Below the pieces are notes generated by a model. That model did not search any database and was not told where the DNA came from. It worked only from the letters and a program-made list of their open reading frames with translations. Shown piece by piece: positions 19,574 to 55,297 of a stretch of 64,000 nucleotides of DNA. Numbering within the stretch: the stretch's first letter is position 1; each line of letters starts with the position of its first letter. Position numbers and translations under genes: made by a program. Location of the stretch: sequence record DRR723986_1769, one strand, 5' to 3'.

Positions 19574-19694
19574 TGTGAAACCTCAAACGTAAGTTAAAAA
19601 ACGCATGAGGGAGGGGACGAGGGAATTCGACAGCGAGCCGCAAGGGCCAGAAGAAGTCCAACGCATGAAGCCCTCCGCTTCATTGCTGTTAACG

Positions 19695-19835
19695 TCTAAA
19701 GGCCGGTATCGGGCTCTCATCGAAATGATCACCGTTGCGGGGGCAGCGTTGGATTCACCTTGGCGGTTTACCAAACTTCCCGTTTAACCTGCCAGACCGA
19801 TTGCTCGTGTCGACAGGCACCTTCAGAACGCGGGG
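19695..19835 (-). ncRNA. Cobalamin (B12) riboswitch
   Basis: Minus strand reads AAGGTG...AGGTTAAACGGGAA...GGTGAATCC...CTGCCCCCGCAACGGT...AGCCCGATACCGGCC, the conserved B12-element order; in the 5' leader of the receptor; ends approximate. Confidence 0.88.
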
Positions 19836-19869
19836 GAGCATACCACAGCTCGCCCGCTGCACAAGTTTG

Positions 19870-45983: not shown

Positions 45984-46688
45984 ATGACAGCATTACTCCA
46001 TATAGATTCAAGCGTAAGAGCAGCAAGCAACCCGAACCCCGAGCATGACTCCCTGTCGAAAAATATCGCGCGGCGATTTATCGAAACATGGAAACAACAC
46101 CGACCTCTAGATGAATATATCTACAGAGATGTTGGCATAAACCCACCGGCATTTATCAACCAAGACTGGATTGGCGCGGTATTTACCCCCGAGCACAACC
46201 GCAGCCCGGCACAACAGCAAACACTGGCCCTCTCCGATGAACTGATCGCAGAGGTCGCAGCGGCCGACGTCATCGTTATTTCCTCACCAATGTACAACTA
46301 CGGCATGCCCGCCCAACTTAAAGCCTGGTTCGACCAAATTGTGCGGATCAATAAAACCTTCGACTTTGACCTATCCCGCGGCGACCACCCCTTGCAGCCA
46401 CTGCTATCTGGCAAAACCCTAATCATCGTGACGTCCACGGGGGAATTCGGCTTTGAAAAGGGCGGTATACGCGAGCACTCCGCCCACCTGGTTCCCCACC
46501 TGAAAACGCTCAGCAAATATTTAGGCGTGGAAACCAGCTACGAAATCGCCTCTGAATACCAGGAATTTGGCGACGACAGGCACCGCCGCTCACTCACCAA
46601 GGCAAAGGCCCGTGCCGAGCACCTTGCAGCCGAGCTATGCGGCGCTATGCCGACGCAATCGCCCACAACGGAGGTAAAAAGTGCATAA
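45984..46688 (+). CDS. azoR: FMN-dependent NADH-azoreductase
   Basis: LLHIDSS, PMYNYGMPAQLKAWFD. Confidence 0.85.
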   Translation: MTALLHIDSSVRAASNPNPEHDSLSKNIARRFIETWKQHRPLDEYIYRDVGINPPAFINQDWIGAVFTPEHNRSPAQQQTLALSDELIAEVAAADVIVISSPMYNYGMPAQLKAWFDQIVRINKTFDFDLSRGDHPLQPLLSGKTLIIVTSTGEFGFEKGGIREHSAHLVPHLKTLSKYLGVETSYEIASEYQEFGDDRHRRSLTKAKARAEHLAAELCGAMPTQSPTTEVKSA

Positions 46689-47163
46689 CGCCCTCGAAGG
46701 CCGCCTGCGACAGCATGCAGAAAGCACCATCGAGCTAGCGATTCAGCACGCCAATGCCGGTGGCCTGCCCTTTTCCGCACTGATTATCAATGCACAAGGG
46801 GAAGTCATCGGCGAAGGCGTCAACCAGGTCGCCCAACAGCTCGACTGCACCGCCCACGCCGAAGTGCAGGCAATACGAAACGCCTCACGCAATACGCGCC
46901 GCGTTGCGTTACACGGCGCGACACTCATTGCCTCCGGCGAGCCCTGCGCGCTCTGTTTTATGGCCATCCATATGGCCGGTATCAAAAACGTGATCTGCCT
47001 TTCGAGCCGGCATGATGCCGCCGACCACGGCTTCGACTACCGATGGACCTACCGACACATAAACACCAGCCTACTGAATGCGCTGAACGTGGTGATGTTG
47101 GAGAACGACAGGAAACTGCTGCCATTTCAGGTTGCAAAACAGCAATTACGTAACAGTAATTAA
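46681..47163 (+). CDS. Nucleoside/guanine deaminase family protein
   Basis: PFSA, HAE and EPCxxC zinc motifs. Confidence 0.88.
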   Translation: MHNALEGRLRQHAESTIELAIQHANAGGLPFSALIINAQGEVIGEGVNQVAQQLDCTAHAEVQAIRNASRNTRRVALHGATLIASGEPCALCFMAIHMAGIKNVICLSSRHDAADHGFDYRWTYRHINTSLLNALNVVMLENDRKLLPFQVAKQQLRNSN

Positions 47164-47224: not shown

Positions 47225-47758
47225 CTACCAAAGCCCAGGGTCATTGAGCGCCTCAACACACCGTGTGGGGCCACTCATCGCCTGAACCGCACCGCCATCG
47301 AGCGACTGCGCCAACCAGCCAATCGGCTGACTCAAGGGACATGGGGCTTTTACTATCGCTTCGGTGATCTGCTCAAAGCCCACTTTGGAATAATAGCCGG
47401 GGTCGCCATAGGTAAACACCAACTCAACTCCAAGCGATTTAAGATGATCCAAACCGTATCGAATAAGCGCCTGGCCGATCCCTTTGCCCTGCACATCCGT
47501 TGATACCGCAACCGGCGACAAAATAAAGGCACGCCGCCCGCTCGGCACAATAAGCTGACTAAAGAAAATACCGCCAACAACAGCATCGCCTTCCCATGCA
47601 GTAAAGCCAATAACCGCAGACGGGGGTGTTGTTGAAATCAGGTCCTTAACGAAATCCGCAATCACCTGCCCTTCTGCCTCTCCTTCAGCATCTGAGAAAA
47701 CCCGCTGAAATAGCGCGACAACGGGCCCTATATTGGATTCATTGAATAGCTTAAACAT
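47225..47758 (-). CDS. GNAT N-acetyltransferase (probable distal cassette 11)
   Basis: LSPVAV...QGKGIGQALI, GDPGYYSKVGF. Confidence 0.85.
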   Translation of the reverse strand: MFKLFNESNIGPVVALFQRVFSDAEGEAEGQVIADFVKDLISTTPPSAVIGFTAWEGDAVVGGIFFSQLIVPSGRRAFILSPVAVSTDVQGKGIGQALIRYGLDHLKSLGVELVFTYGDPGYYSKVGFEQITEAIVKAPCPLSQPIGWLAQSLDGGAVQAMSGPTRCVEALNDPGLW

Positions 47759-47774
47759 CACGGCTTGCACCTCG

Positions 47775-47916
47775 CAGCAACGCAAGTAAAGCGGACATGT
47801 GGCCGGCTCGGTGGTCCCCCCAATCTCTCGTGTAGAGTTACACCCGACGTATGCGTTCCGCACTACTTATTAGAAAGTGCACATCAAATCGGGGGTAATG
47901 TGCCTGCTTGTTATGT
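47775..47916 (-). other. Degenerate attC site
   Basis: R'' ACATAAC overlaps the stop of the 47911-48657 gene; putative R' GTTGCTG before the GNAT gene; long and weakly paired. Confidence 0.45.
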
Positions 47917-48657
47917 GTCTGTTGAAATGTCGTCCCACTCTTGCCCCATGTAGCCGATAAGCCAATTTAAAGTGTAATGCCTTTCCAATACGACACTTGG
48001 ATCAAGCGCTGACGGAGCGGGTTGCCCTTTAATTCGAGCATCTACGACAGCCCAATGATATCGATATATTAAATCCGCCTCATCTAAGATTTCAGAGATG
48101 GACCTTAAATCTGCATCAGCGACGAACTGCTCTTTAGTTCTCTCATGGAGAGCGGCAACAGCAGCCGTTACGTTACAAATCTCGTTAGGATAGGACAGCT
48201 CATCAACATACCCTAACACCCAAAGAAGCACCCAAGCAGCCTCATAACGCCAGATGAACTGAGTTTTATCATGATAGGAAGGAGACTTCTCTGAAATAAA
48301 CTCCATCTCTTTTGGCGATAGAACATTCTTTAAACCATAGTCTTCCACTAATTGATCGACAATTTCCTGTTCTAAGCCTTCCGCTTTTACTGCAACAACA
48401 ATGAGCGCCATTACCCTCTCGGCAATCTCACCTTTACTTCTTACCAAAGCTTCGCTTTCATCTTCAATATATGGAAGGCTCTCATTTATTGGAACGTTGT
48501 TTTTGTGGAGAACAGCTTCTGAACTAGCTTTTCGCTCTGCAGATGCCATAGAAAATTTAGTTTCCACCTTCTTGATGTGGATTCTCCTTTCACTGAGATC
48601 CGATGCACTAACATTAATAACGAAAAATATCGCAATAACCGTTAGTACTATTTTCAT
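47911..48657 (-). CDS. DUF4272-like protein with signal peptide (cassette 10)
   Basis: WRYE...LLWVLG, ILDEADLIYRYHWA, VVLERHYTLNWL. Confidence 0.8.
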   Translation of the reverse strand: MKIVLTVIAIFFVINVSASDLSERRIHIKKVETKFSMASAERKASSEAVLHKNNVPINESLPYIEDESEALVRSKGEIAERVMALIVVAVKAEGLEQEIVDQLVEDYGLKNVLSPKEMEFISEKSPSYHDKTQFIWRYEAAWVLLWVLGYVDELSYPNEICNVTAAVAALHERTKEQFVADADLRSISEILDEADLIYRYHWAVVDARIKGQPAPSALDPSVVLERHYTLNWLIGYMGQEWDDISTDT

Positions 48658-48678
48658 TTTAAATCCCTATTCGCCTTC

Positions 48679-48734
48679 ACATACCACACAGCTACATAGC
48701 ACCGCTTTTCGCCTCTTTAAGCGCTTTTTTACGC
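48679..48734 (-). other. Degenerate attC site
   Basis: R'' reads GCGTAAA (AAC changed to AAA); R' reads GGTATGTG, one change from the GTTATGTG expected from the cassette's CACATAAC. Confidence 0.5.
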
Positions 48735-48736
48735 AT

Positions 48737-49180
48737 TTACTCCTCAACCATTGTAAGCGCTATCTTTACTAATTTAGAAAAATCGGAATCGCATCCCTTG
48801 TGCGAGTATAGAGTTAAAATTGGCCCATCAACCCAAAACCGTCGAACGAACCAAACACCCACCTCCCCAGCACTCCCATCATACTCAGAAGCTCTACAAA
48901 CCCAAAAAACACCCTCTTTTTTTCCGCTAGAAATAAATATCGTGCCATCAGGGTCGTCGAAAAATCCTCTCCTAAAAGATTGGACGAAGTCTTTACCTGA
49001 GTCGTAGCCCCAGGCAGATTTTGAAATGAGCTCGCCGATTTTTTTATCCGACGAATAAATTACAGGACCTTTTATTTCCCAGCCATCAGGAGCAATAAGT
49101 GAAATATTTTTGTACACCAGCTCTCCAGAAGAAACCTCACCAGAAAGCCATAGAAAAATAACGCATATATATTTCTTCAT
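48737..49180 (-). CDS. Secreted hypothetical protein (cassette 9)
   Basis: AT-rich 147-aa ORF with a signal peptide. Confidence 0.7.
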   Translation of the reverse strand: MKKYICVIFLWLSGEVSSGELVYKNISLIAPDGWEIKGPVIYSSDKKIGELISKSAWGYDSGKDFVQSFRRGFFDDPDGTIFISSGKKEGVFWVCRASEYDGSAGEVGVWFVRRFWVDGPILTLYSHKGCDSDFSKLVKIALTMVEE

Positions 49181-49191
49181 AGCCTTTTACC

Positions 49192-49271
49192 CGCAAAGCC
49201 GCCAGCCACCGCGAGATTAAACCAGAACGGCACGTAGACGAAATTGGCCGACTTACCCGCCCATGTTAGAC
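49192..49271 (-). other. Partly degenerate attC site
   Basis: R'' GTCTAAC just after the stop; R' not intact. Confidence 0.5.
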
Positions 49272-49272
49272 C

Positions 49273-49608
49273 TTATGCTATAACCCGCTTTTTATAGCGA
49301 TTTATTGCTATAAACCCCGGCGCGTACAACACCACAACAAACGCTCCCATGATCAAGCTCTCTACCGAATCACCCGTTCCTGCAAGAATGTAAACCCACC
49401 AAAATACGCAAACGTAGAAGATCGCAGCAGCTAATTTCGTTGACACCAAGGCTTTTTCGAAAGCGAAACAGAAAAGCGGGAACGCAAACGCCACAGAAAA
49501 TGTAGCCTTGAGGATACATAGAAGGATACCAGCGCCAGAAAAAGCATCCACCGCAATCTCTGACGAAACCAGAACCACATAAAATACAAAGTAGAGCTTC
49601 CAGCCCAT
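49273..49608 (-). CDS. Small 4-TM membrane protein (cassette 8)
   Basis: Hydrophobic ORF; cassette bounded by GTTAAACC...GGTCTAAC. Confidence 0.7.
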   Translation of the reverse strand: MGWKLYFVFYVVLVSSEIAVDAFSGAGILLCILKATFSVAFAFPLFCFAFEKALVSTKLAAAIFYVCVFWWVYILAGTGDSVESLIMGAFVVVLYAPGFIAINRYKKRVIA

Positions 49609-49645
49609 TTTATTGCCTAATCCCAGCGCCATAACATCACTATAG

Positions 49646-49718
49646 GTTTAACGCCGCAAGCAAAGGCCAGCGTTAGCGAGTCCAGACCTCAGGGCTATTT
49701 TGCCTCGCCTTGTTATAC
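49646..49718 (-). other. attC site
   Basis: Minus strand GTATAAC...GTTAAAC, 73 bp, internal imperfect stem. Confidence 0.8.
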
Positions 49719-49724
49719 GTTTGC

Positions 49725-50021
49725 TCACGGCTGCGCCTGAATTACTTGGCATAAAGCCGTAAGATTATTATGGAAATCTTTTTCAGTACCCTCGGGAACA
49801 ATTGGCTCCAACATTACCCAAGTATTGTTACCTTGCCAGGACTCAACTGAGCCAAAACCTTCCTCAGCGTCCCACGAGATCATAAACTGATTTTCGCCTG
49901 CCGCATAAACACAATGGACAGAACCACAATAGTCAGTCTCTGTATCAGGCTTAACTTCTTCGTAGCCCGCCTTAGAAAGCAGCTCTGCAATGTGATTTTT
50001 TATCTTGTGATATTCGTGCAT
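49725..50021 (-). CDS. Hypothetical protein (cassette 7)
   Basis: Acidic 98-aa ORF bounded by GTTATACGT...ACGTATAAC. Confidence 0.75.
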   Translation of the reverse strand: MHEYHKIKNHIAELLSKAGYEEVKPDTETDYCGSVHCVYAAGENQFMISWDAEEGFGSVESWQGNNTWVMLEPIVPEGTEKDFHNNLTALCQVIQAQP

Positions 50022-50031
50022 TCTGGTCTAC

Positions 50032-50115
50032 GTATAACGCCGCCATAACCGGCCGGAGCACGCGGTGCGGAGGTCCAGCCAGCTTTGCTGGCGATGGTTG
50101 ATGGCCTTGTTAGGC
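50032..50115 (-). other. attC site
   Basis: Minus strand GCCTAAC...GTTATAC, 84 bp; upstream stop codon lies within R''. Confidence 0.85.
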
Positions 50116-50805
50116 ATTTTTAAAATTCGGATATGTGATGACCATTGCAATGATACTAACTGTAGCGACAACGATCATGCCCTCGGGCATTAATGATTGC
50201 ATCATCTCAACCTCTCCATCTCTTACAGGGAGACCTTGAACTTCTCTCCTTGTTAAGACCATCTGCTCTACTACAGGATCCCATAGCTTCCAGCTAAGTG
50301 CGTCTGAAATTACGCTAATTAGTGCTACGCTAATGCCTGCAATAAAACCTCGAATATTGAGCTTTAAAAACCAGTAACCTGCTAGGATAGAAATTGACCC
50401 AAGCGCTAAATGTATAATTATTTGTGTGGTTTCGTTAGGAAAGTAACCAAATGCTGGTTGAGATACGAACATTTGTGTCCATCTTACTAGCTGTTTAGTG
50501 CCTTCAAGAATAAGTAGCACTCCGAGCAATATTGAAAGCCAATTTTCTCTTCTAAATATTTCTTCATTCACGCACATAGTATTCTTATCGATACTTAGGA
50601 AGCTGAACCCAATCGAACCGATAAATTTTGAAGTTATAGCGCGTATTAAGAGAAATGCTAAATAAGGAGCCCAAAATGGTACACTTTCTTCAAGCTTCAT
50701 AAAGTATGACAGTAAGCCCCACAACGTCATGAAGAATAAGAGATCTATGTACCATGACAATAACAGTCGTTTTTTTGTTGCTAAATTAGTATTGCTCTCT
50801 TCCAT
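50110..50805 (-). CDS. Multi-pass membrane protein (cassette 6)
   Basis: ATG after GGAG; about 6 TM helices; bounded by GTTAGGCA...TGCCTAAC. Confidence 0.75.
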   Translation of the reverse strand: MEESNTNLATKKRLLLSWYIDLLFFMTLWGLLSYFMKLEESVPFWAPYLAFLLIRAITSKFIGSIGFSFLSIDKNTMCVNEEIFRRENWLSILLGVLLILEGTKQLVRWTQMFVSQPAFGYFPNETTQIIIHLALGSISILAGYWFLKLNIRGFIAGISVALISVISDALSWKLWDPVVEQMVLTRREVQGLPVRDGEVEMMQSLMPEGMIVVATVSIIAMVITYPNFKNA

Positions 50806-50819
50806 TGTTACTCCATTTT

Positions 50820-50908
50820 GCCTAACGCCCCCAAAGGGGTAGACAAATAAGCGCAGCGATTTGGCTGTCCCGGCGACCAAAGGGAGCGATTACTGCGGCT
50901 TGTTAGCA
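50820..50908 (-). other. attC site
   Basis: Minus strand TGCTAAC...GTTAGGC, 89 bp. Confidence 0.8.
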
Positions 50909-50911
50909 CTT

Positions 50912-51262
50912 TTAAAACACCATTGCATGATCACAATGATACTCACCGTCTTGGTGAACTAAGACCATTTCTGCTACAAATTCACCTTTTGCTTTAGTGA
51001 AAGATTGTTTCCATATAATAGCTACTGAACCAGGGCGCTTGAATACTGCAACTGGCTTTCTAGCTGAAAAGAACCCTTTTTCTTTTTGATATTGCTCACA
51101 CACTTTTTGAAGGTATTCCTCGGTGACGATTTCCTTCATTCGATCAGTAAAATCTCGCGTGTGTGCTTTATGATCAATGCGAGTAGACGCATCCATCAGG
51201 TTATCCATAATTGGATTAGCTATGTGGAAGATTTCATCTTCTGTCATTCCTTCGAAGTTCAT
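50912..51262 (-). CDS. Hypothetical protein (cassette 5)
   Basis: 116-aa ORF with AGGAG RBS. Confidence 0.8.
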   Translation of the reverse strand: MNFEGMTEDEIFHIANPIMDNLMDASTRIDHKAHTRDFTDRMKEIVTEEYLQKVCEQYQKEKGFFSARKPVAVFKRPGSVAIIWKQSFTKAKGEFVAEMVLVHQDGEYHCDHAMVF

Positions 51263-51278
51263 GGCTTCTCCTTGTGAG

Positions 51279-51360
51279 TACTACCGCCGCCAGCTGGCGG
51301 CCATTTGCAGTGGAGCAAAGCGCAACGAAAAATGGGTCGCGCTGCCTGCCCTTGTTAGGT
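51279..51360 (-). other. attC site with a mutated crossover (GTT to GGT)
   Basis: Minus strand ACCTAAC...GGTAGTA, 82 bp. Confidence 0.7.
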
Positions 51361-51378
51361 GATGAATTTCCTGCATGC

Positions 51379-51708
51379 CTAGCTGTGAATTCCGAATATT
51401 GCCAGATAAGCTACCAACCCTACCAAACAAACAGAAGAAAGCATGCGAATGTAATTCGCCATTCGTGCGACATTCTGCCCCCTAATATATGCCTCATGCT
51501 CCTTCAGCCTATCGTCTTCTCTCTTAGCCGCATCGTTAGCGGATTTTTCTAGAGATTTTTGATAGTCCTCACTACTCTTACATTGTTCCTCTAGATAATC
51601 TCTATATTTCGCGTTCTTATTTTTCGTTTGCTCTAGAAGCTCGTTAAGAACAATTAATTGTTGCCTCTGTATCTCGAGAACTTCTTTGAGAGTGTTAGCT
51701 TCATTCAT
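51379..51708 (-). CDS. Coiled-coil protein with a C-terminal TM helix (cassette 4)
   Basis: Charged helical N-terminus and hydrophobic C-terminus; bounded by GTTAGGTGA...TCACCTAAC. Confidence 0.7.
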   Translation of the reverse strand: MNEANTLKEVLEIQRQQLIVLNELLEQTKNKNAKYRDYLEEQCKSSEDYQKSLEKSANDAAKREDDRLKEHEAYIRGQNVARMANYIRMLSSVCLVGLVAYLAIFGIHS

Positions 51709-51727
51709 CTATAAATACTCGCTTTTC

Positions 51728-51811
51728 ACCTAACGCTTGCAGCATGCGCGCCATCGGAGTGGAGCGGAAGGCGCAATGTAGTGGGCGTCGCCGTGCCTGC
51801 ACTGGTTAGTA
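51728..51811 (-). other. attC site
   Basis: Minus strand TACTAAC...GTTAGGT, 84 bp. Confidence 0.85.
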
Positions 51812-52531
51812 CTCATTGGCACGAGTCCAGATATCTTTATATATGCCAATTTTTGAAGTTGCGATTGTTGGCGACAGCGGTATCAAATATGTCGATTTTT
51901 TAGCAGCATCTTTAATCGAGTTACCCACGATCCAACAATCTGACTGATCAATGATTACAAGGCGATCATGAATTTCTTTCGACTTTCGGAGCTCAATTGG
52001 CGTACCAAACTGAGCGGAATATTTTTCGGTGTAGCTTTTTAAGTCGTCGGCATAGCGCTCTGAGAGAATGCGCACTGATGCCTGCTCGGAGATTGAGGAC
52101 AGGTAGGACTCAAAGGCTTCGCCGTTGAAATACGGATCAACGATAAAAACGCTTTTGTGAGCATTCCCGATGATAGCTTTCAGATCCGAAAAGAAGCTAT
52201 AGACTTCTCCAGGCTGATAGACACTTCCCACTTCGGTCTTTCCATTAAGCTCTAAGTCCAGCTTCAACTCTTCAATAGCATCGCCAACTTGGCTAATAAT
52301 ATGATTCAGCGCAAATTCTTTGTGCTGCGACAGCATTCCCATATGTGTGCGATAGTTGACTGAGTGCTGGCCCCCTAAAGCGTTGAATATCGCCCCCAGC
52401 TTTGACAGCCATTCTCGTTGAGGCGTCATGGCTCGGACGGGACCGTCACCAAACTCCGGAGCGTTCTCGTAGGCATCAACCAATTTGAGCAACATGATGT
52501 GTTTCTGCATCGGATCGATACTAAAGATCAT
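51806..52531 (-). CDS. Protein with a C-terminal PLD-like domain (cassette 3)
   Basis: FIVDPY...IHDRLVIID...WIVGNSIKD; bounded by GTTAGTACTC...GAGTACTAAC. Confidence 0.75.
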   Translation of the reverse strand: MIFSIDPMQKHIMLLKLVDAYENAPEFGDGPVRAMTPQREWLSKLGAIFNALGGQHSVNYRTHMGMLSQHKEFALNHIISQVGDAIEELKLDLELNGKTEVGSVYQPGEVYSFFSDLKAIIGNAHKSVFIVDPYFNGEAFESYLSSISEQASVRILSERYADDLKSYTEKYSAQFGTPIELRKSKEIHDRLVIIDQSDCWIVGNSIKDAAKKSTYLIPLSPTIATSKIGIYKDIWTRANEY

Positions 52532-52563
52532 TGCGGTCCTTTTTGCACTTAACTAGATCGGAG

Positions 52564-52639
52564 TACTAACGCCTTTAGCAACGGCAAATTGCGGAGCCGA
52601 AGGCGTAGTAATTTGTCCGCTTGCCTAAATTTGTTAGGG
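52564..52639 (-). other. attC site
   Basis: Minus strand CCCTAAC...GTTAGTA, 76 bp, with TTTAG/CTAAA and CAAATT/AATTTG pairing. Confidence 0.88.
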
Positions 52640-52641
52640 CT

Positions 52642-53124
52642 TTACCCACACCACTTTACCTCAACCTGACGCGGCTTCTCAGTATTGACTGGACCAGCAA
52701 GGCCTTTGCACTCATTACTGCCACACATATAGCCCAATGCACCGGTTACCTCGCCATACTCTGTGATTAAGCCGACTGACTTGCCGTTAACAAAATAGAA
52801 GCGATTTTCATCGTGCCCTGTAGGAACCACTAGGGGTATAGGGAAGAATACAATAAATGCCCCAACACCTGACCAGCTGTAACCATCATGGTATGTGACA
52901 ACCTCGCAACTGCCCACTTGAGTTATGGCGTCAGGCTCTCCCCAGGATGAAATTAGAGCCTCTTTGGTTAGTGCCGTGGCGCTCGCACCATAGTTAAACT
53001 TGTTTCGCTCACTGGTGATATTTACGGACGTTTTCTCATCTTCGAAGGTTCCGTAAGTACCCACAGCCAAACCTACACATCCCTGAAGGAAGAACGTAAG
53101 ACAGAAAATCGATAATTTCTTCAC
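52642..53124 (-). CDS. Putative lipoprotein (cassette 2)
   Basis: Lipobox LQGC, WGEPD motif; bounded by GTTAGGGCT...AGCCCTAAC. Confidence 0.75.
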   Translation of the reverse strand: MKKLSIFCLTFFLQGCVGLAVGTYGTFEDEKTSVNITSERNKFNYGASATALTKEALISSWGEPDAITQVGSCEVVTYHDGYSWSGVGAFIVFFPIPLVVPTGHDENRFYFVNGKSVGLITEYGEVTGALGYMCGSNECKGLAGPVNTEKPRQVEVKWCG

Positions 53125-53137
53125 GCTCTCTCCTGAG

Positions 53138-53201
53138 CCCTAACGCTGTTAATAATAGGCGCTGCGCGTAGCGAGCGTCCTTTTTGATTTGATGGTTATG
53201 T
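53138..53201 (-). other. attC site
   Basis: Minus strand ACATAAC...GTTAGGG, 64 bp; stop codon within R''. Confidence 0.82.
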
Positions 53202-53978
53202 GTCGATTTCCACACTTTTGTACATAACATGTGATTCGACTGCATTTATTATGGCGACCACATATTCTATAGACGCATTCAAATACTCGCTGAAATCGCT
53301 GCTACTGACTCTAATAGAATCACCAATTTCGAATTTGAGTCCAGGACAAAGTGAAACAAATCTCTCATCTGCAATACCAGCTTTATGAACCAAAACATTT
53401 CTTATCGCGGCCATTTCATTTAGAGTTTTCCGAATTGCTGAAGGAACTTTAGGCTTTAGTTTGAGTGGGTTTAGTATGCAATCGAACCTACCAATTCCTG
53501 GCTTAAGCGTTGCGCTAAGTTCTCTTTCAAATTGATCAAGGAGAAAGCGCATCCTATCTAGGGATTCTAGCTTTTCAAACTCAACCAGCCTAATTTTAAG
53601 TTTTTCAAATTCGGGAATATTTCGAGATGTCGGATATCTATATAGCCAACGAACGAGAAAATCCTTAATTGACGTCTCGAGTGCACCCCACAATAGAATA
53701 GTTGTAGACCCTCGGAGCAAAGCGAAATCACTTTCTACTTCGTTCTTGGCTAAAGATTCTATTTCCGCGGCTCTTTCGATTTCTTCCGCGTCTGATTTCA
53801 GCACCTTTCTGAGCTTTTCTAACCCGGTCATATTTTGAACCGAGAATGTTACCAGCTTAGTAAGATTCGTTAATTCTTCGACCCGTGAAAGGAATATATC
53901 TTCGAACGGGACAACTTCGTACTCCGTGTTGGGTCTCTCTGCTTCTTCTTTCTTATTCATGTTGGATATTGGCACCAT
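53196..53978 (-). CDS. HEPN-motif protein (cassette 1)
   Basis: Helical protein with RNVLVH (Rx4H) and an upstream WGALE; bounded by GTTATGTGT...ACACATAAC. Confidence 0.7.
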   Translation of the reverse strand: MVPISNMNKKEEAERPNTEYEVVPFEDIFLSRVEELTNLTKLVTFSVQNMTGLEKLRKVLKSDAEEIERAAEIESLAKNEVESDFALLRGSTTILLWGALETSIKDFLVRWLYRYPTSRNIPEFEKLKIRLVEFEKLESLDRMRFLLDQFERELSATLKPGIGRFDCILNPLKLKPKVPSAIRKTLNEMAAIRNVLVHKAGIADERFVSLCPGLKFEIGDSIRVSSSDFSEYLNASIEYVVAIINAVESHVMYKSVEIDT

Positions 53979-53985
53979 CTAGTAC

Positions 53986-54030
53986 ACATAACATTTGTAT
54001 ATCGCGCACGCTCGGTTTATTCCAGCGTTA
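53986..54030 (-). other. attI-like recombination site
   Basis: The first cassette's G|TTATGTG (G at 53992) is preceded by non-attC sequence ...CGAGCGTGCGCGATATACAAAT. Confidence 0.65.
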
Positions 54031-54372
54031 GCTAGTTCAAAAATCTCGTAACGCTCTGATTTTAAATATACATGGGCGTTAACGCGGGAATCGCTTATCG
54101 GGATAAACGGACATGCGCTTAAATCTTCTTGGTGGGGTCTCATAGATATTGCCCATATTTCCTTATGTGGCTTTTTTGCTGCGCGCTAAACGAATGCTTT
54201 GAACAGCGCGCTTTCCTTGCTGGAGGGCTCAGCATAAAACGTGATCACTAAAAACACTAGCCACGACAGCACGTCAATTAGAATATGCGGCGCTTTCAGA
54301 AGGCTGTATTCGCGGGTCTATATAAGAATCGAAGGGAAAATAGCGGCGCCTGGGCTTTAAGGCGGGGAGGAT

Positions 54373-54396
54373 GCTTGGCGCGAAACAGCGCCAAGC
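54373..54396 (-). terminator. Hairpin downstream of mmsB
   Basis: GCTTGGCGC-N6-GCGCCAAGC. Confidence 0.55.
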
Positions 54397-54409
54397 GGGT
54401 AAGCGTGTG

Positions 54410-55297
54410 CTAGCCCTGCATCATTTCAATAATGGCGGAGAAGTCTCGCTGGGCATTGCCGTCTTTGCCGGCAAAGCTGGCGTAGAGGCTGCGCGCCAAT
54501 GCACCCATGGGCACAGCGCTTTGGGTTTTCAGGCTGTTTTCCATCGCCAGCCCAAGGTCTTTGAGCATCAGCTGGGCCATAAAGCCGGGCTGGTAGTCGT
54601 TGCTGGCTGGGGTGGCCGGCATAACGCCGGGTACCGGGTTGTAGTTTTGCAGTGACCAGTTATCGCCAGAGCTGTTCTTCATAATCTCTGACAATATGCT
54701 GGCATCCAGGCCGTTATTTAAGCCCAGCTGCAGTGCTTCGGCGGTGCCGACCATATGCACGGCCAGCAGCATGTTGTTGCACATTTTGGCGATTTGGCCA
54801 GCGCCGTGGTCACCCGCGTGGAAGATTTTTTTACCCATCCCCGCCAGGATTTTTTCTGCGCGGGCAAAGCCCGCCTCGCTGCCGCCGCACATAAAGGCGA
54901 GTGTGCCCGCCTGCGCGGCTTTTACGCCACCGGATACCGGCGCGTCTAACATATCCAGCCCTGCGGCCTCGGCCGCCGCGCCAACTTCGCGGGCAGTTTC
55001 GGCGTCGATGGTGCTGCAGTCGAGGATGAGCGTGCCTTTTTGCGCCTTGGCAATCAGGCCTGCCTCGCCAAGGTACAAACCGGCCACGTGTTTGCCAGCG
55101 GGGAGCATACTAAGAATCACTTCGGCGCCATCCATGGCCGCTTCAGCAGTGCTGGCACACTGTGCGCCCTGCTCGGCTAGCGCTTGCATGGCGGGCTGAG
55201 ACAGGTCAAAAACGGTCAGGCTGTGGCCTGCCTTGAGTAGATTGGCCGCCATTGGGCCACCCATATTTCCCAAGCCGATAAATGCAATGCTGCTCAT
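54410..55297 (-). CDS. mmsB: 3-hydroxyisobutyrate dehydrogenase
   Basis: FIGLGNMGGPMA, DAPVSGG, AKMCNNMLL, YNPVPG, LMLKDL. Confidence 0.92.
   Translation of the reverse strand: MSSIAFIGLGNMGGPMAANLLKAGHSLTVFDLSQPAMQALAEQGAQCASTAEAAMDGAEVILSMLPAGKHVAGLYLGEAGLIAKAQKGTLILDCSTIDAETAREVGAAAEAAGLDMLDAPVSGGVKAAQAGTLAFMCGGSEAGFARAEKILAGMGKKIFHAGDHGAGQIAKMCNNMLLAVHMVGTAEALQLGLNNGLDASILSEIMKNSSGDNWSLQNYNPVPGVMPATPASNDYQPGFMAQLMLKDLGLAMENSLKTQSAVPMGALARSLYASFAGKDGNAQRDFSAIIEMMQG

Follow-up and report, generated by a model that had tools for sequence, protein, structure and literature searches.

Clusters of attC sites lacking an integron integrase (CALINs) have been defined operationally as at least two attC sites lying close together with no integrase within reach (Cury et al. 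2016, PMC4889954). How they arise, and whether they are alive, are acknowledged open questions. In the sections of that study devoted to CALINs, 95% of them had no pseudogene of the integrase gene, intI, nearby; loss of the integrase was proposed as an origin, and the attachment site attI was searched only as the exact class 1-3 sequences, which is why CALINs are not known to carry attI. Cassette insertion at secondary sites has been proposed as one origin in the relevant part of a preprint (Loot et al., 10.1101/2022.09.11.507474). The portion of a Shewanella survey that counts CALINs does not mention attI in them, and a literature search that left subscription journals mostly outside turned up neither CALINs with a retained attI nor reports of cassette turnover at such places. 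Here we describe an array of gene cassettes in sequence record DRR723986_1769, at positions 47,225 to 55,297 of a stretch of 64,000 nt (hereafter the window, meaning the whole 64 kb, to which all coordinates refer). Very probably, this region is a chromosomal integron from which intI was cleanly deleted, that is, a CALIN that keeps its own attI. Its origin can be read from the surviving attI and intI-attI spacer, from intI at the same locus in a sister genome, and from near-identical variants that differ by exact cassettes.

The attI region and the missing integrase gene

All genes of the region lie on the minus strand. Read in this direction, the mmsB stop at 54410 leads into a filler of about 150 nt, which gives way to a non-coding region of 270 nt (54259-53989) and then to ten short open reading frames (ORFs). 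We compared this layout with genomes of the same genus, designated by G numbers. The nearest, G001, has 46% of the words sampled from the window and reaches about 95% identity in the flanks. The following features make up the array head:

54410..55297, minus strand: mmsB (3-hydroxyisobutyrate dehydrogenase), the conserved upstream flank; TIGR01692 HIBADH, 406 bits against a cut-off of 291.6
54260..54409, minus strand: filler of about 150 nt where G009 has intI, common to G001 and G015
54396-54373, minus strand: 9-bp stem-loop in the filler
54364-54347, minus strand: terminator-like site in the filler
53989..54259, minus strand: attI region, the remnant of the intI-attI spacer, without intI and without LexA box; from a profile and a 16-copy genus alignment
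53989..54018, minus strand: attI core AAACCGAGCGTGCGCGATATACAAATGTTA, with the predicted crossover between G53992 and T53991; genus copies diverge after (G/T)TTA
53979..54143, minus strand: 54-codon ORF running through the attI crossover, a possible leader ORF with a conserved ATG

The initial annotation had spoken of an attI-like site. Judged by its homology to three intI-adjacent copies in the genus and to 14 in other genera, the head of the array is a true attI, although its recombination activity is a prediction. The 270 bp at 54259-53989 are homologous to the intI-attI spacer of related genomes, with divergence right after GTTA, and a profile made of intI-linked copies only (nhmmer) matches the window from -269 to 0 with an E-value of 8e-22. 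The head ends in ...ATATACAAATG|TTA. All 16 copies in the genus carry ...GGCAAACCGAGCGTGC..ATATACAAATGTTA and are unrelated immediately past (G/T)TTA, as expected for a crossover at G|TT. For three of these copies (G009, G004 and G008) a full, divergent integron integrase gene starts about 325 nt away, two adjoin integrase fragments (G010 and G041), and the other 11 have no integrase alongside; we call the latter kind orphans. Synteny between G001 and the window ends at 53981, and a contig from the public run X3 departs at 53989. The 240 nt ahead of the first GTT recur at two further loci of G001, in both cases after the 3' end of a housekeeping-type gene and followed by low-G+C genes.

No integrase gene adjacent and divergent to attI, as found in complete integrons, is detectable in the window. 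The 418 bp between the mmsB stop (54410) and the first GTT (53992) leave no room for one, and tblastn with an integron integrase gave nothing better than E 0.26 in the window, whose flanks measure 10 kb and 47 kb, in agreement with the first reading of the sequence. A blastn search with word size 7 detected no intI remnant in the filler and no similarity to the intI of G009. The gene mmsB occurs in all 28 genus genomes searched, and only in G009 does intI lie next to it. There (L054), an intact intI (384.6 bits, family cut-off 265) separates the 3' end of mmsB from the homologous attI region; mmsB and intI converge, and spacer and array continue on the mmsB strand. The MmsB protein of G009 has 91.5% amino acid identity, and its gene is the closest outside the group of the window, G001 and G015 (85% nucleotide identity, against 73-83% for the rest). 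In this group the locus is occupied in all three members, with the same filler in place of intI.

These results show that intI was deleted cleanly, without remnant, in an ancestor common to the window, G001 and G015. Because the three have the same filler and G009 keeps intI at the same locus, sequence comparison points to a single deletion, older than the split of these lineages, that took intI, its 5' leader and the LexA box. The initial annotation had left the choice between an integron that lost intI and a secondary attI platform; the former is borne out by the intact intI of G009, at the same locus and in the same orientation, and by the shared unrelated filler. We had also considered that orphan copies might keep the LexA box, and rejected it: a box at about -290 is found in nine of the 14 intI-linked copies, against five of 62 intI-less copies at the same place. 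A Neomelitea salexigens record (L116) combines an MmsB of 98% amino acid identity, an attI region of 82% identity, a short array and the GNAT gene, which places the source of the window among the close relatives in that group.

The same evidence bears on two other origins. Cassettes might have been inserted one by one at a non-integron secondary site (attG), at a place that never held an integron. This route is documented, as far as the part of Loot et al. on such insertions goes (10.1101/2022.09.11.507474), and single attC matches are scattered in genomes of the genus. Yet the array head does not look like an attG, as some 270 nt of it are homologous to the spacer between intI and attI in complete integrons, and the sister genome G009 has intI at the same locus, which makes this origin extremely unlikely. 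Very unlikely, too, is that the array formed the distal part of a larger integron and was separated from intI by inversion, translocation or an insertion sequence. Such splitting is one of the CALIN origins proposed in the pertinent section of Cury et al. (PMC4889954), and G001 does have an intI 83 kb away on the same contig, but a split-off piece would not start with attI and spacer. Moreover, the G001 gene belongs to a different lineage (48% identity), and the neighbouring DNA is, by eye, unlike the spacer. We retain the deletion of intI in place as the preferred origin.

The spacer has some features of its own. The ATG of the 54-codon ORF lies inside the most conserved block (GCCACATAAGGAAATATGGGCAATATCTATGAGACCCC), and the frame reads through the attI crossover. 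It is open to the GTT core in six of the nine copies scored, four of which stop at the TAA or TAG of GTTAA or GTTAG; its product has no Pfam match. Like the short ORF described in attI1, it may be a leader ORF coupling translation into the first cassette. By eye, positions 54185-54221 of the minus strand read GCGCGCT-N17-AGCGCGC, a 7-bp hairpin, and the two other spacer copies of G001 read GCGCGTT...AACGCGC, with both sides of the stem changed. This hairpin may be a protein-binding palindrome or an RNA stem.

The cassettes and their attC sites

The array runs on the minus strand from 53992 down to about 47900 and holds about ten promoter-less, single-gene cassettes. The figure of about 11 given in the initial annotation has to be lowered. 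The ORF at 47225-47758, within its range, is a G+C-rich GNAT flank gene common to relatives. The features are:

53144..53991, minus strand: cassette 1; ORF 53978-53196, 260 aa; attC 53201-53138, model E 0.02
52570..53143, minus strand: cassette 2; ORF 53124-52642, 160 aa; attC 52639-52564, model E 6.8e-7
51734..52569, minus strand: cassette 3, 836 bp; ORF 52531-51806, 241 aa; attC 51811-51728, model E 3.1e-8
51285..51733, minus strand: cassette 4; ORF 51708-51379, 109 aa; attC 51360-51279, model E 2.1e-5
50826..51284, minus strand: cassette 5; ORF 51262-50912, 116 aa; attC 50908-50820, model E 6.5e-4
50038..50825, minus strand: cassette 6; ORF 50805-50110, 231-aa membrane protein; attC 50115-50032, model E 4.3e-7
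49652..50037, minus strand: cassette 7; ORF 50021-49725, 98 aa; attC 49718-49646, model E 1.2e-7
49185..49651, minus strand: cassette 8; ORF 49632-49273, 119-aa membrane protein; degenerate attC 49271-49185
48690..49184 (boundaries approximate), minus strand: cassette-like gene 9; ORF 49180-48737, 147 aa; no attC recognisable
47910..48689, minus strand: cassette-like gene 10; ORF 48657-47911, 248 aa, DUF4272
47918-47910, minus strand: R''-like box ACACATAAC at the end of gene 10, with no full attC after it
47872..47895, minus strand: array-end motif CCCCCGATTTGATGTGCACTTTCT, which G001 and G015 have in the same place; read by eye
47225..47758, minus strand: GNAT acetyltransferase (PF00583), the conserved downstream flank, not a cassette

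The region is a genuine array of integron gene cassettes. As first described, its genes are co-oriented, single and mostly AT-rich, with a G+C content of 0.36-0.49 against 0.55-0.64 in the flanks. Each of the first seven ORFs is followed by an imperfect palindrome of 64-89 nt of the form RYYYAAC...GTTRRRY, and these putative sites are mutually unlike in sequence. The six pairs of complementary GTT and AAC boxes listed in the initial annotation are all present: GTTATGTGT at 53992 and ACACATAAC at 53203 in cassette 1, GTTAGGGCT at 53144 with its complement at 52641 in cassette 2, GTTAGTACT at 52570 and 51813 in cassette 3, GTTAGGTGA at 51734 and 51362 in cassette 4, GTTAGGCA at 50826 and 50116 in cassette 6, and GTTATACGT at 50038 and 49720 in cassette 7. 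Complementarity of the 5' box with the cassette's own R'' is the signature of a circular cassette; it is exact over 8-10 nt in these six and approximate in cassettes 5 and 8. The number of such pairs in the window is at chance level (12 nine-mer pairs on both strands, versus 7.7 +/- 3.9 in shuffles), but their placement is not random, since five of six nine-mer pairs tile one 4.3-kb stretch end to end with one ORF each. Searching individual attC sites of the array for complementary R'' and R' gave no result, as expected because R' belongs to the next cassette.

The attC sites were assessed with a home-built covariance model; Rfam holds no attC family. Training arrays were found in three other genomes by chaining cassettes through their own boxes from an integron integrase or its remnant (7, 6 and 9 cassettes), and the model was made from the 18 of these sites that aligned cleanly at both ends, with all window sequences excluded. 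Its structure has 12 pairs, R''/R' and then L''/L' with one bulge. In the training set 88.0% of pair cells are paired, all eight L-stem pairs vary on both sides, and the covariation score was reached by none of 500 shuffles; slid controls paired in 26-43% of cells across the training and window sets (34-40% for the training set). A scan of both strands of the 64 kb with filters off gave seven matches (E 3e-8 to 0.02), all on the minus strand at hand-marked cassette ends, and the next best had an E-value of at least 8. By this model, the seven palindromes are attC sites. In an alignment fitted to the model, the window's seven sites have 88.9% of cells paired and six of eight stem pairs varying on both sides. 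Unconstrained folding of the bottom strand as DNA gave the full hairpin for three of eight sites. The eighth attC, at 49271-49185, is degenerate and has no model match, and no attC is recognisable after the last two genes, 9 and 10.

The seven matches are spaced 397-828 bp apart on one strand, so that the array contains clustered attC in the sense used for CALINs, at least two sites less than 4 kb apart. With its 7-8 attC sites it is smaller than the sedentary chromosomal integrons that the corresponding passage of Cury et al. (PMC4889954) sets at more than 19, or at occurrence in every genome of a species.

The cassette content is typical of chromosomal integrons, according to Pfam and PADLOC searches. 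The product of gene 10 has a strong DUF4272 match (252.7 bits), that of cassette 1 a weak match to HEPN_RiboL-PSP (27.6 bits against a cut-off of 28.4), and that of cassette 6 a DUF7144 match below the cut-off. Cassette 3 encodes a protein with a weak PLD-like match and a match to the PADLOC candidate defence family PDC-S05 at E 1e-19. The N-terminus of the cassette 2 product resembles, by eye, a lipoprotein signal; this protein and the five others have no family matches in these searches. The cassettes belong to a pool shared within the genus: five attC sites and three cassettes of the window have 66-90% identical DNA in other genomes, including a 70% identical counterpart of cassette 5 in G010 and 81-83% identical counterparts of cassette 8 in G005 and G006, and one of these matches sits in the intI-linked array of G009. 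For several of the attC sites, relatives of 80-90% identity occur elsewhere among the arrays of the genus.

Some boxes are unusual. The first cassettes of the window, G001 and G015 share the boxes GTTATGTGT (start) and ACACATAAC (end), though the three cassettes are unrelated. The former box also stands at the start of an orphan attI of another locus in G014, and the latter ends gene 10. The positions concerned are 53992-53984 in the window and about 5508 in L009, 13396 in L042 and 14056 in L046. Tallied by eye, a box of the CACATAAC type occurs in only about five of 31 other cassettes. The attC of cassette 4 has a degenerate R' box (GGTAGTA). The start of cassette 5, GGTAGTACTC (51285-51276), resembles the box of cassette 3, GTTAGTACTC (52570-52561), and is not the complement of its own R'', AGTGCTAAC, a mismatch that may go back to an earlier rearrangement. 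A motif CCCC(C)RRTTTGATGYG ends the array at the mmsB locus in the window (47872-47895), in G001 (L009, about 6870) and in G015, and a similar one is found at a second orphan locus of G001 (contig C7; L016, about 9355). It may be what originally came after the empty attI.

Beyond the array, the GNAT gene is faced by a convergent gene of the cytidine/deoxycytidylate deaminase family (46681-47163, plus strand; PF00383, E 8.3e-20), itself a conserved flank. The sole Rfam match in the window is a cobalamin riboswitch at 19684-19839 on the minus strand (56.4 bits, gathering score 31.5).

Cassette turnover at a locus without intI

The initial annotation had proposed a comparison of the mmsB-deaminase interval across relatives. 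The interval is not identical among them, and the arrays differ by whole cassettes between conserved flanks. Collinearity of G001 with the window extends to 53981 and resumes at 47748, as does synteny with G015, and the interval in G001 consists of 1.5 kb of different cassettes. The corresponding array measures 1.95 kb in G015 and 6.2 kb in the window. G001 and G015 have a distal toxin-antitoxin-like cassette in common, preceded by one versus two unrelated attI-proximal cassettes, and none of these is in the window. Two other orphan loci common to G001 and G015 also start with different cassettes. The shared distal cassette has two genes (L009 6260-6840; L042, minus strand, about 1200-1790 nt into the array), and reads by eye as a Phd/YefM-like antitoxin followed by a ParE/RelE-like toxin, without counterpart in the window array.

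Closer variants were found by aligning public contigs from runs X1-X4 to the window. In X1 the whole array is present at about 99.5% identity with the same integrase-less junction. Record 17 of X3 has the filler and attI region (54323-53989), then 1179 other letters, then cassette 5 onward with 13 differences in 1350 nt; cassettes 1-4 are thus replaced, with breakpoints at the attI GTTA (53989) and at the boundary of cassettes 4 and 5 (51287). In record 11 of X2, which has three differences in 1712 nt, position 51729 directly adjoins 52566, so that precisely the 836 bp making up cassette 3 are missing; the joint lies within seven shared letters, GCGTTAG. An exact single-cassette difference in a 99.8% identical background is what recombination between two attC sites produces. 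The same joint occurs in X4 with only 23 letters on one side, and other X4 contigs contain cassette 3. The candidate phage-defence match of this variable cassette fits the idea, as reported in a preprint (bioRxiv 10.1101/2024.07.02.601686), that chromosomal cassettes store defence genes. Another X2 contig lacks cassette 7 and has its joint at 49673/50106 with 34 other letters between. This joint falls inside the attC sites on the R'' side, not at R', and could reflect a different crossover point or a different attC allele. Together, the comparisons support the conclusion that cassettes changed after the deletion of intI, and the differences are mostly at the attI-proximal end.

We lean towards the view that the docking site is still used, by an integrase encoded elsewhere or recently present in the lineage. 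In this mechanism, such an integrase would fold the bottom strands of attC sites and recombine at G|TT; recombination between two attC sites would lead to cassette loss, and recombination between an attC and the retained attI to cassette gain. We propose that an integrase acting in trans would leave strains that have the same integrase-less head and differ by whole cassettes. The earlier suggestion of a site served in trans draws support from precisely such differences among genomes with the same deletion. Integrases of the genus fall into at least four lineages, with 44-49% identity between lineages, and the attI of the window goes with one of them, type A (G009, G004 and G008, 75-79% identical among themselves).

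Several points weigh against continued use of the site. A cognate type A integrase was not found in the two nearest genomes: the sole integrase of G001 that passes the family cut-off, and the only intact one, has 48% identity to type A, and none was detected in G015 at E 1e-30 or better. In general, integron integrases favour their cognate attI and make poor use of others. The degenerate or missing attC sites of cassettes 8-10 are a sign of distal decay. Exact cassette breakpoints are also expected from whole-allele swaps by homologous recombination via shared flanks, and the X3 contig is a mosaic, with an 89% identical attI region and 99% identical cassettes 5-6, which points to some allele mixing. 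No X2 contig is at least 90% alike over 54190-54403, so the strain without cassette 3 is not demonstrably intI-less. X3 likewise has no contig over most of cassettes 1-4, and neither gap is evidence of absence. Finally, a consensus scan of 53900-54450 located no sigma-70 promoter, no RNA run was among the public runs listed, and cassette expression from the retained spacer is hypothetical.

The lack of a cognate integrase in G001 and G015, the distal decay with the mutated R' of the fourth attC, and the X3 mosaic would all fit a frozen relic, in which no integrase has acted since the loss of intI and homologous recombination imports array alleles from intact integrons at mmsB. G009 shows that complete integrons exist at this locus in the genus. 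However, the members of the close clade seen at the locus (the window, G001, G015, X1 and X3) are all integrase-less there, and their arrays differ nonetheless. Furthermore, the single internal change of 836 bp in X2 is unlikely to come from flank-mediated replacement, and seven of eight attC sites still score with the model. We regard such a relic as unlikely and prefer the continued use of the site by an integrase in trans.

Other observations concern the integrases of the genus. Among the genomes compared (G001, G007, G009, G010 and G014; L018 and L212-L215), up to three integrase genes occur in one genome, and the spacers beside integrase genes other than type A look unrelated to the attI region of the window. 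The intI of G001, 83 kb from the array, was considered as the cognate integrase acting in trans and rejected, as it is 48% identical and of a different lineage. In G001, the end of contig C5 past the intI start (L018 13100-13224) and the start of contig C10 (L216 1-120) have the same segment of about 45 nt in opposite orientation. It contains a LexA-box-like palindrome, and C10 runs from it into an array with four attC matches. This is probably an assembly break of G001's own integron.

Orphan attI sites and known integron systems

We scanned one genome per species with an attI core pattern designed from this genus and obtained at least 120 matches; flanks were examined for 80 loci, with intI sought within 3 kb upstream. 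Among the matches listed are records of Shewanella, Pseudidiomarina, Aliidiomarina, Rheinheimera, Cellvibrio, Zhongshania, Neomelitea, Porticoccus, Hahella, Marinimicrobium and Enterovibrio, and of many uncultured Gammaproteobacteria. Among these 80 of at least 120 loci, 14 have a full adjacent intI, 58.9-75.2% identical to that of G009, eight have intI fragments or partial genes, and six are at a contig edge; at the other 52, no intI was found at E 1e-5 or better within the 3 kb. Still among the matches listed, where an intI-less locus offers 1 kb or more of downstream sequence, one or more model-supported attC sites follow on the same strand in 30 of 42 cases, only one of 106 attC model matches at E 0.01 or better lies elsewhere, and 30 of 49 orphan-bearing genomes encode an integrase above the family cut-off elsewhere, lineages not sorted.

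Orphans retain about 260 nt of recognisable spacer. Pairwise blastn between orphan and linked copies of other genera showed only the 30-nt core for many, and the profile was used instead. Among copies matched past the core, left ends are mostly at -235 to -347, with one at -418 and others shorter; three run into the 5' end of intI. This variation led us to reject a site-specific or mobile platform unit with one precise left end, and indicates deletions of varying extent plus erosion. Tentatively, integrase-less attI sites might be a widespread, working part of integron biology in marine Gammaproteobacteria, and not debris. If so, one integrase, possibly of a different lineage, would serve several dispersed platforms, and many CALINs would be live gene-capture sites with an origin traceable through attI. 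Our results also suggest a practical method, in which attI profiles built for each family could tell apart CALINs that are decapitated integrons, split arrays or secondary-site insertions. At the locus described here, the readable origin and the natural variants make service of an orphan attI in trans directly testable in a culturable marine genus.

How does this array compare with known systems? The closest are the complete type A integrons of marine Gammaproteobacteria (G009, G004 and G008 in the genus, and 14 loci elsewhere such as L131, L136 and L114), which have the same attI core, a spacer of about 320 nt, attC sites in the style TAACAAG...GGCGTTA and cassettes of mostly unknown function; unlike them, the window has no intI, leader or LexA box. 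In the Vibrio cholerae superintegron, the intI-attI spacer is reported to contain back-to-back integrase and cassette promoters (Krin et al. 2014, PMC3948777). In contrast, no cassette promoter was located in the window copy, and the LexA box of its intI-linked relatives is gone. Loss or degradation of intI from chromosomal integrons in the course of evolution is also reported for Treponema (PMC3607928) and Xanthomonas (bioRxiv 10.1101/2025.06.18.660453). The isolated cassettes and small CALINs made at attG sites, as the portion of Loot et al. (10.1101/2022.09.11.507474) treating them has it, would likewise depend on an integrase in trans, but the docking site of the window is a true attI, by homology, from an integron and not a GNT secondary site.

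By operational definition the region is a CALIN, and thus of a known kind. With the CALINs covered in the relevant sections of Cury et al. (PMC4889954) it shares at least two neighbouring attC sites and the absence of an integrase within reach, and, like most of them, it has no intI remnant left. Unlike them, it has preserved some 270 nt of spacer between intI and attI, and a sister genome makes its origin by deletion demonstrable. New relative to these systems are a retained attI, a clean loss of intI that can be traced, evidence from populations for continued cassette change, and the frequency of orphans.

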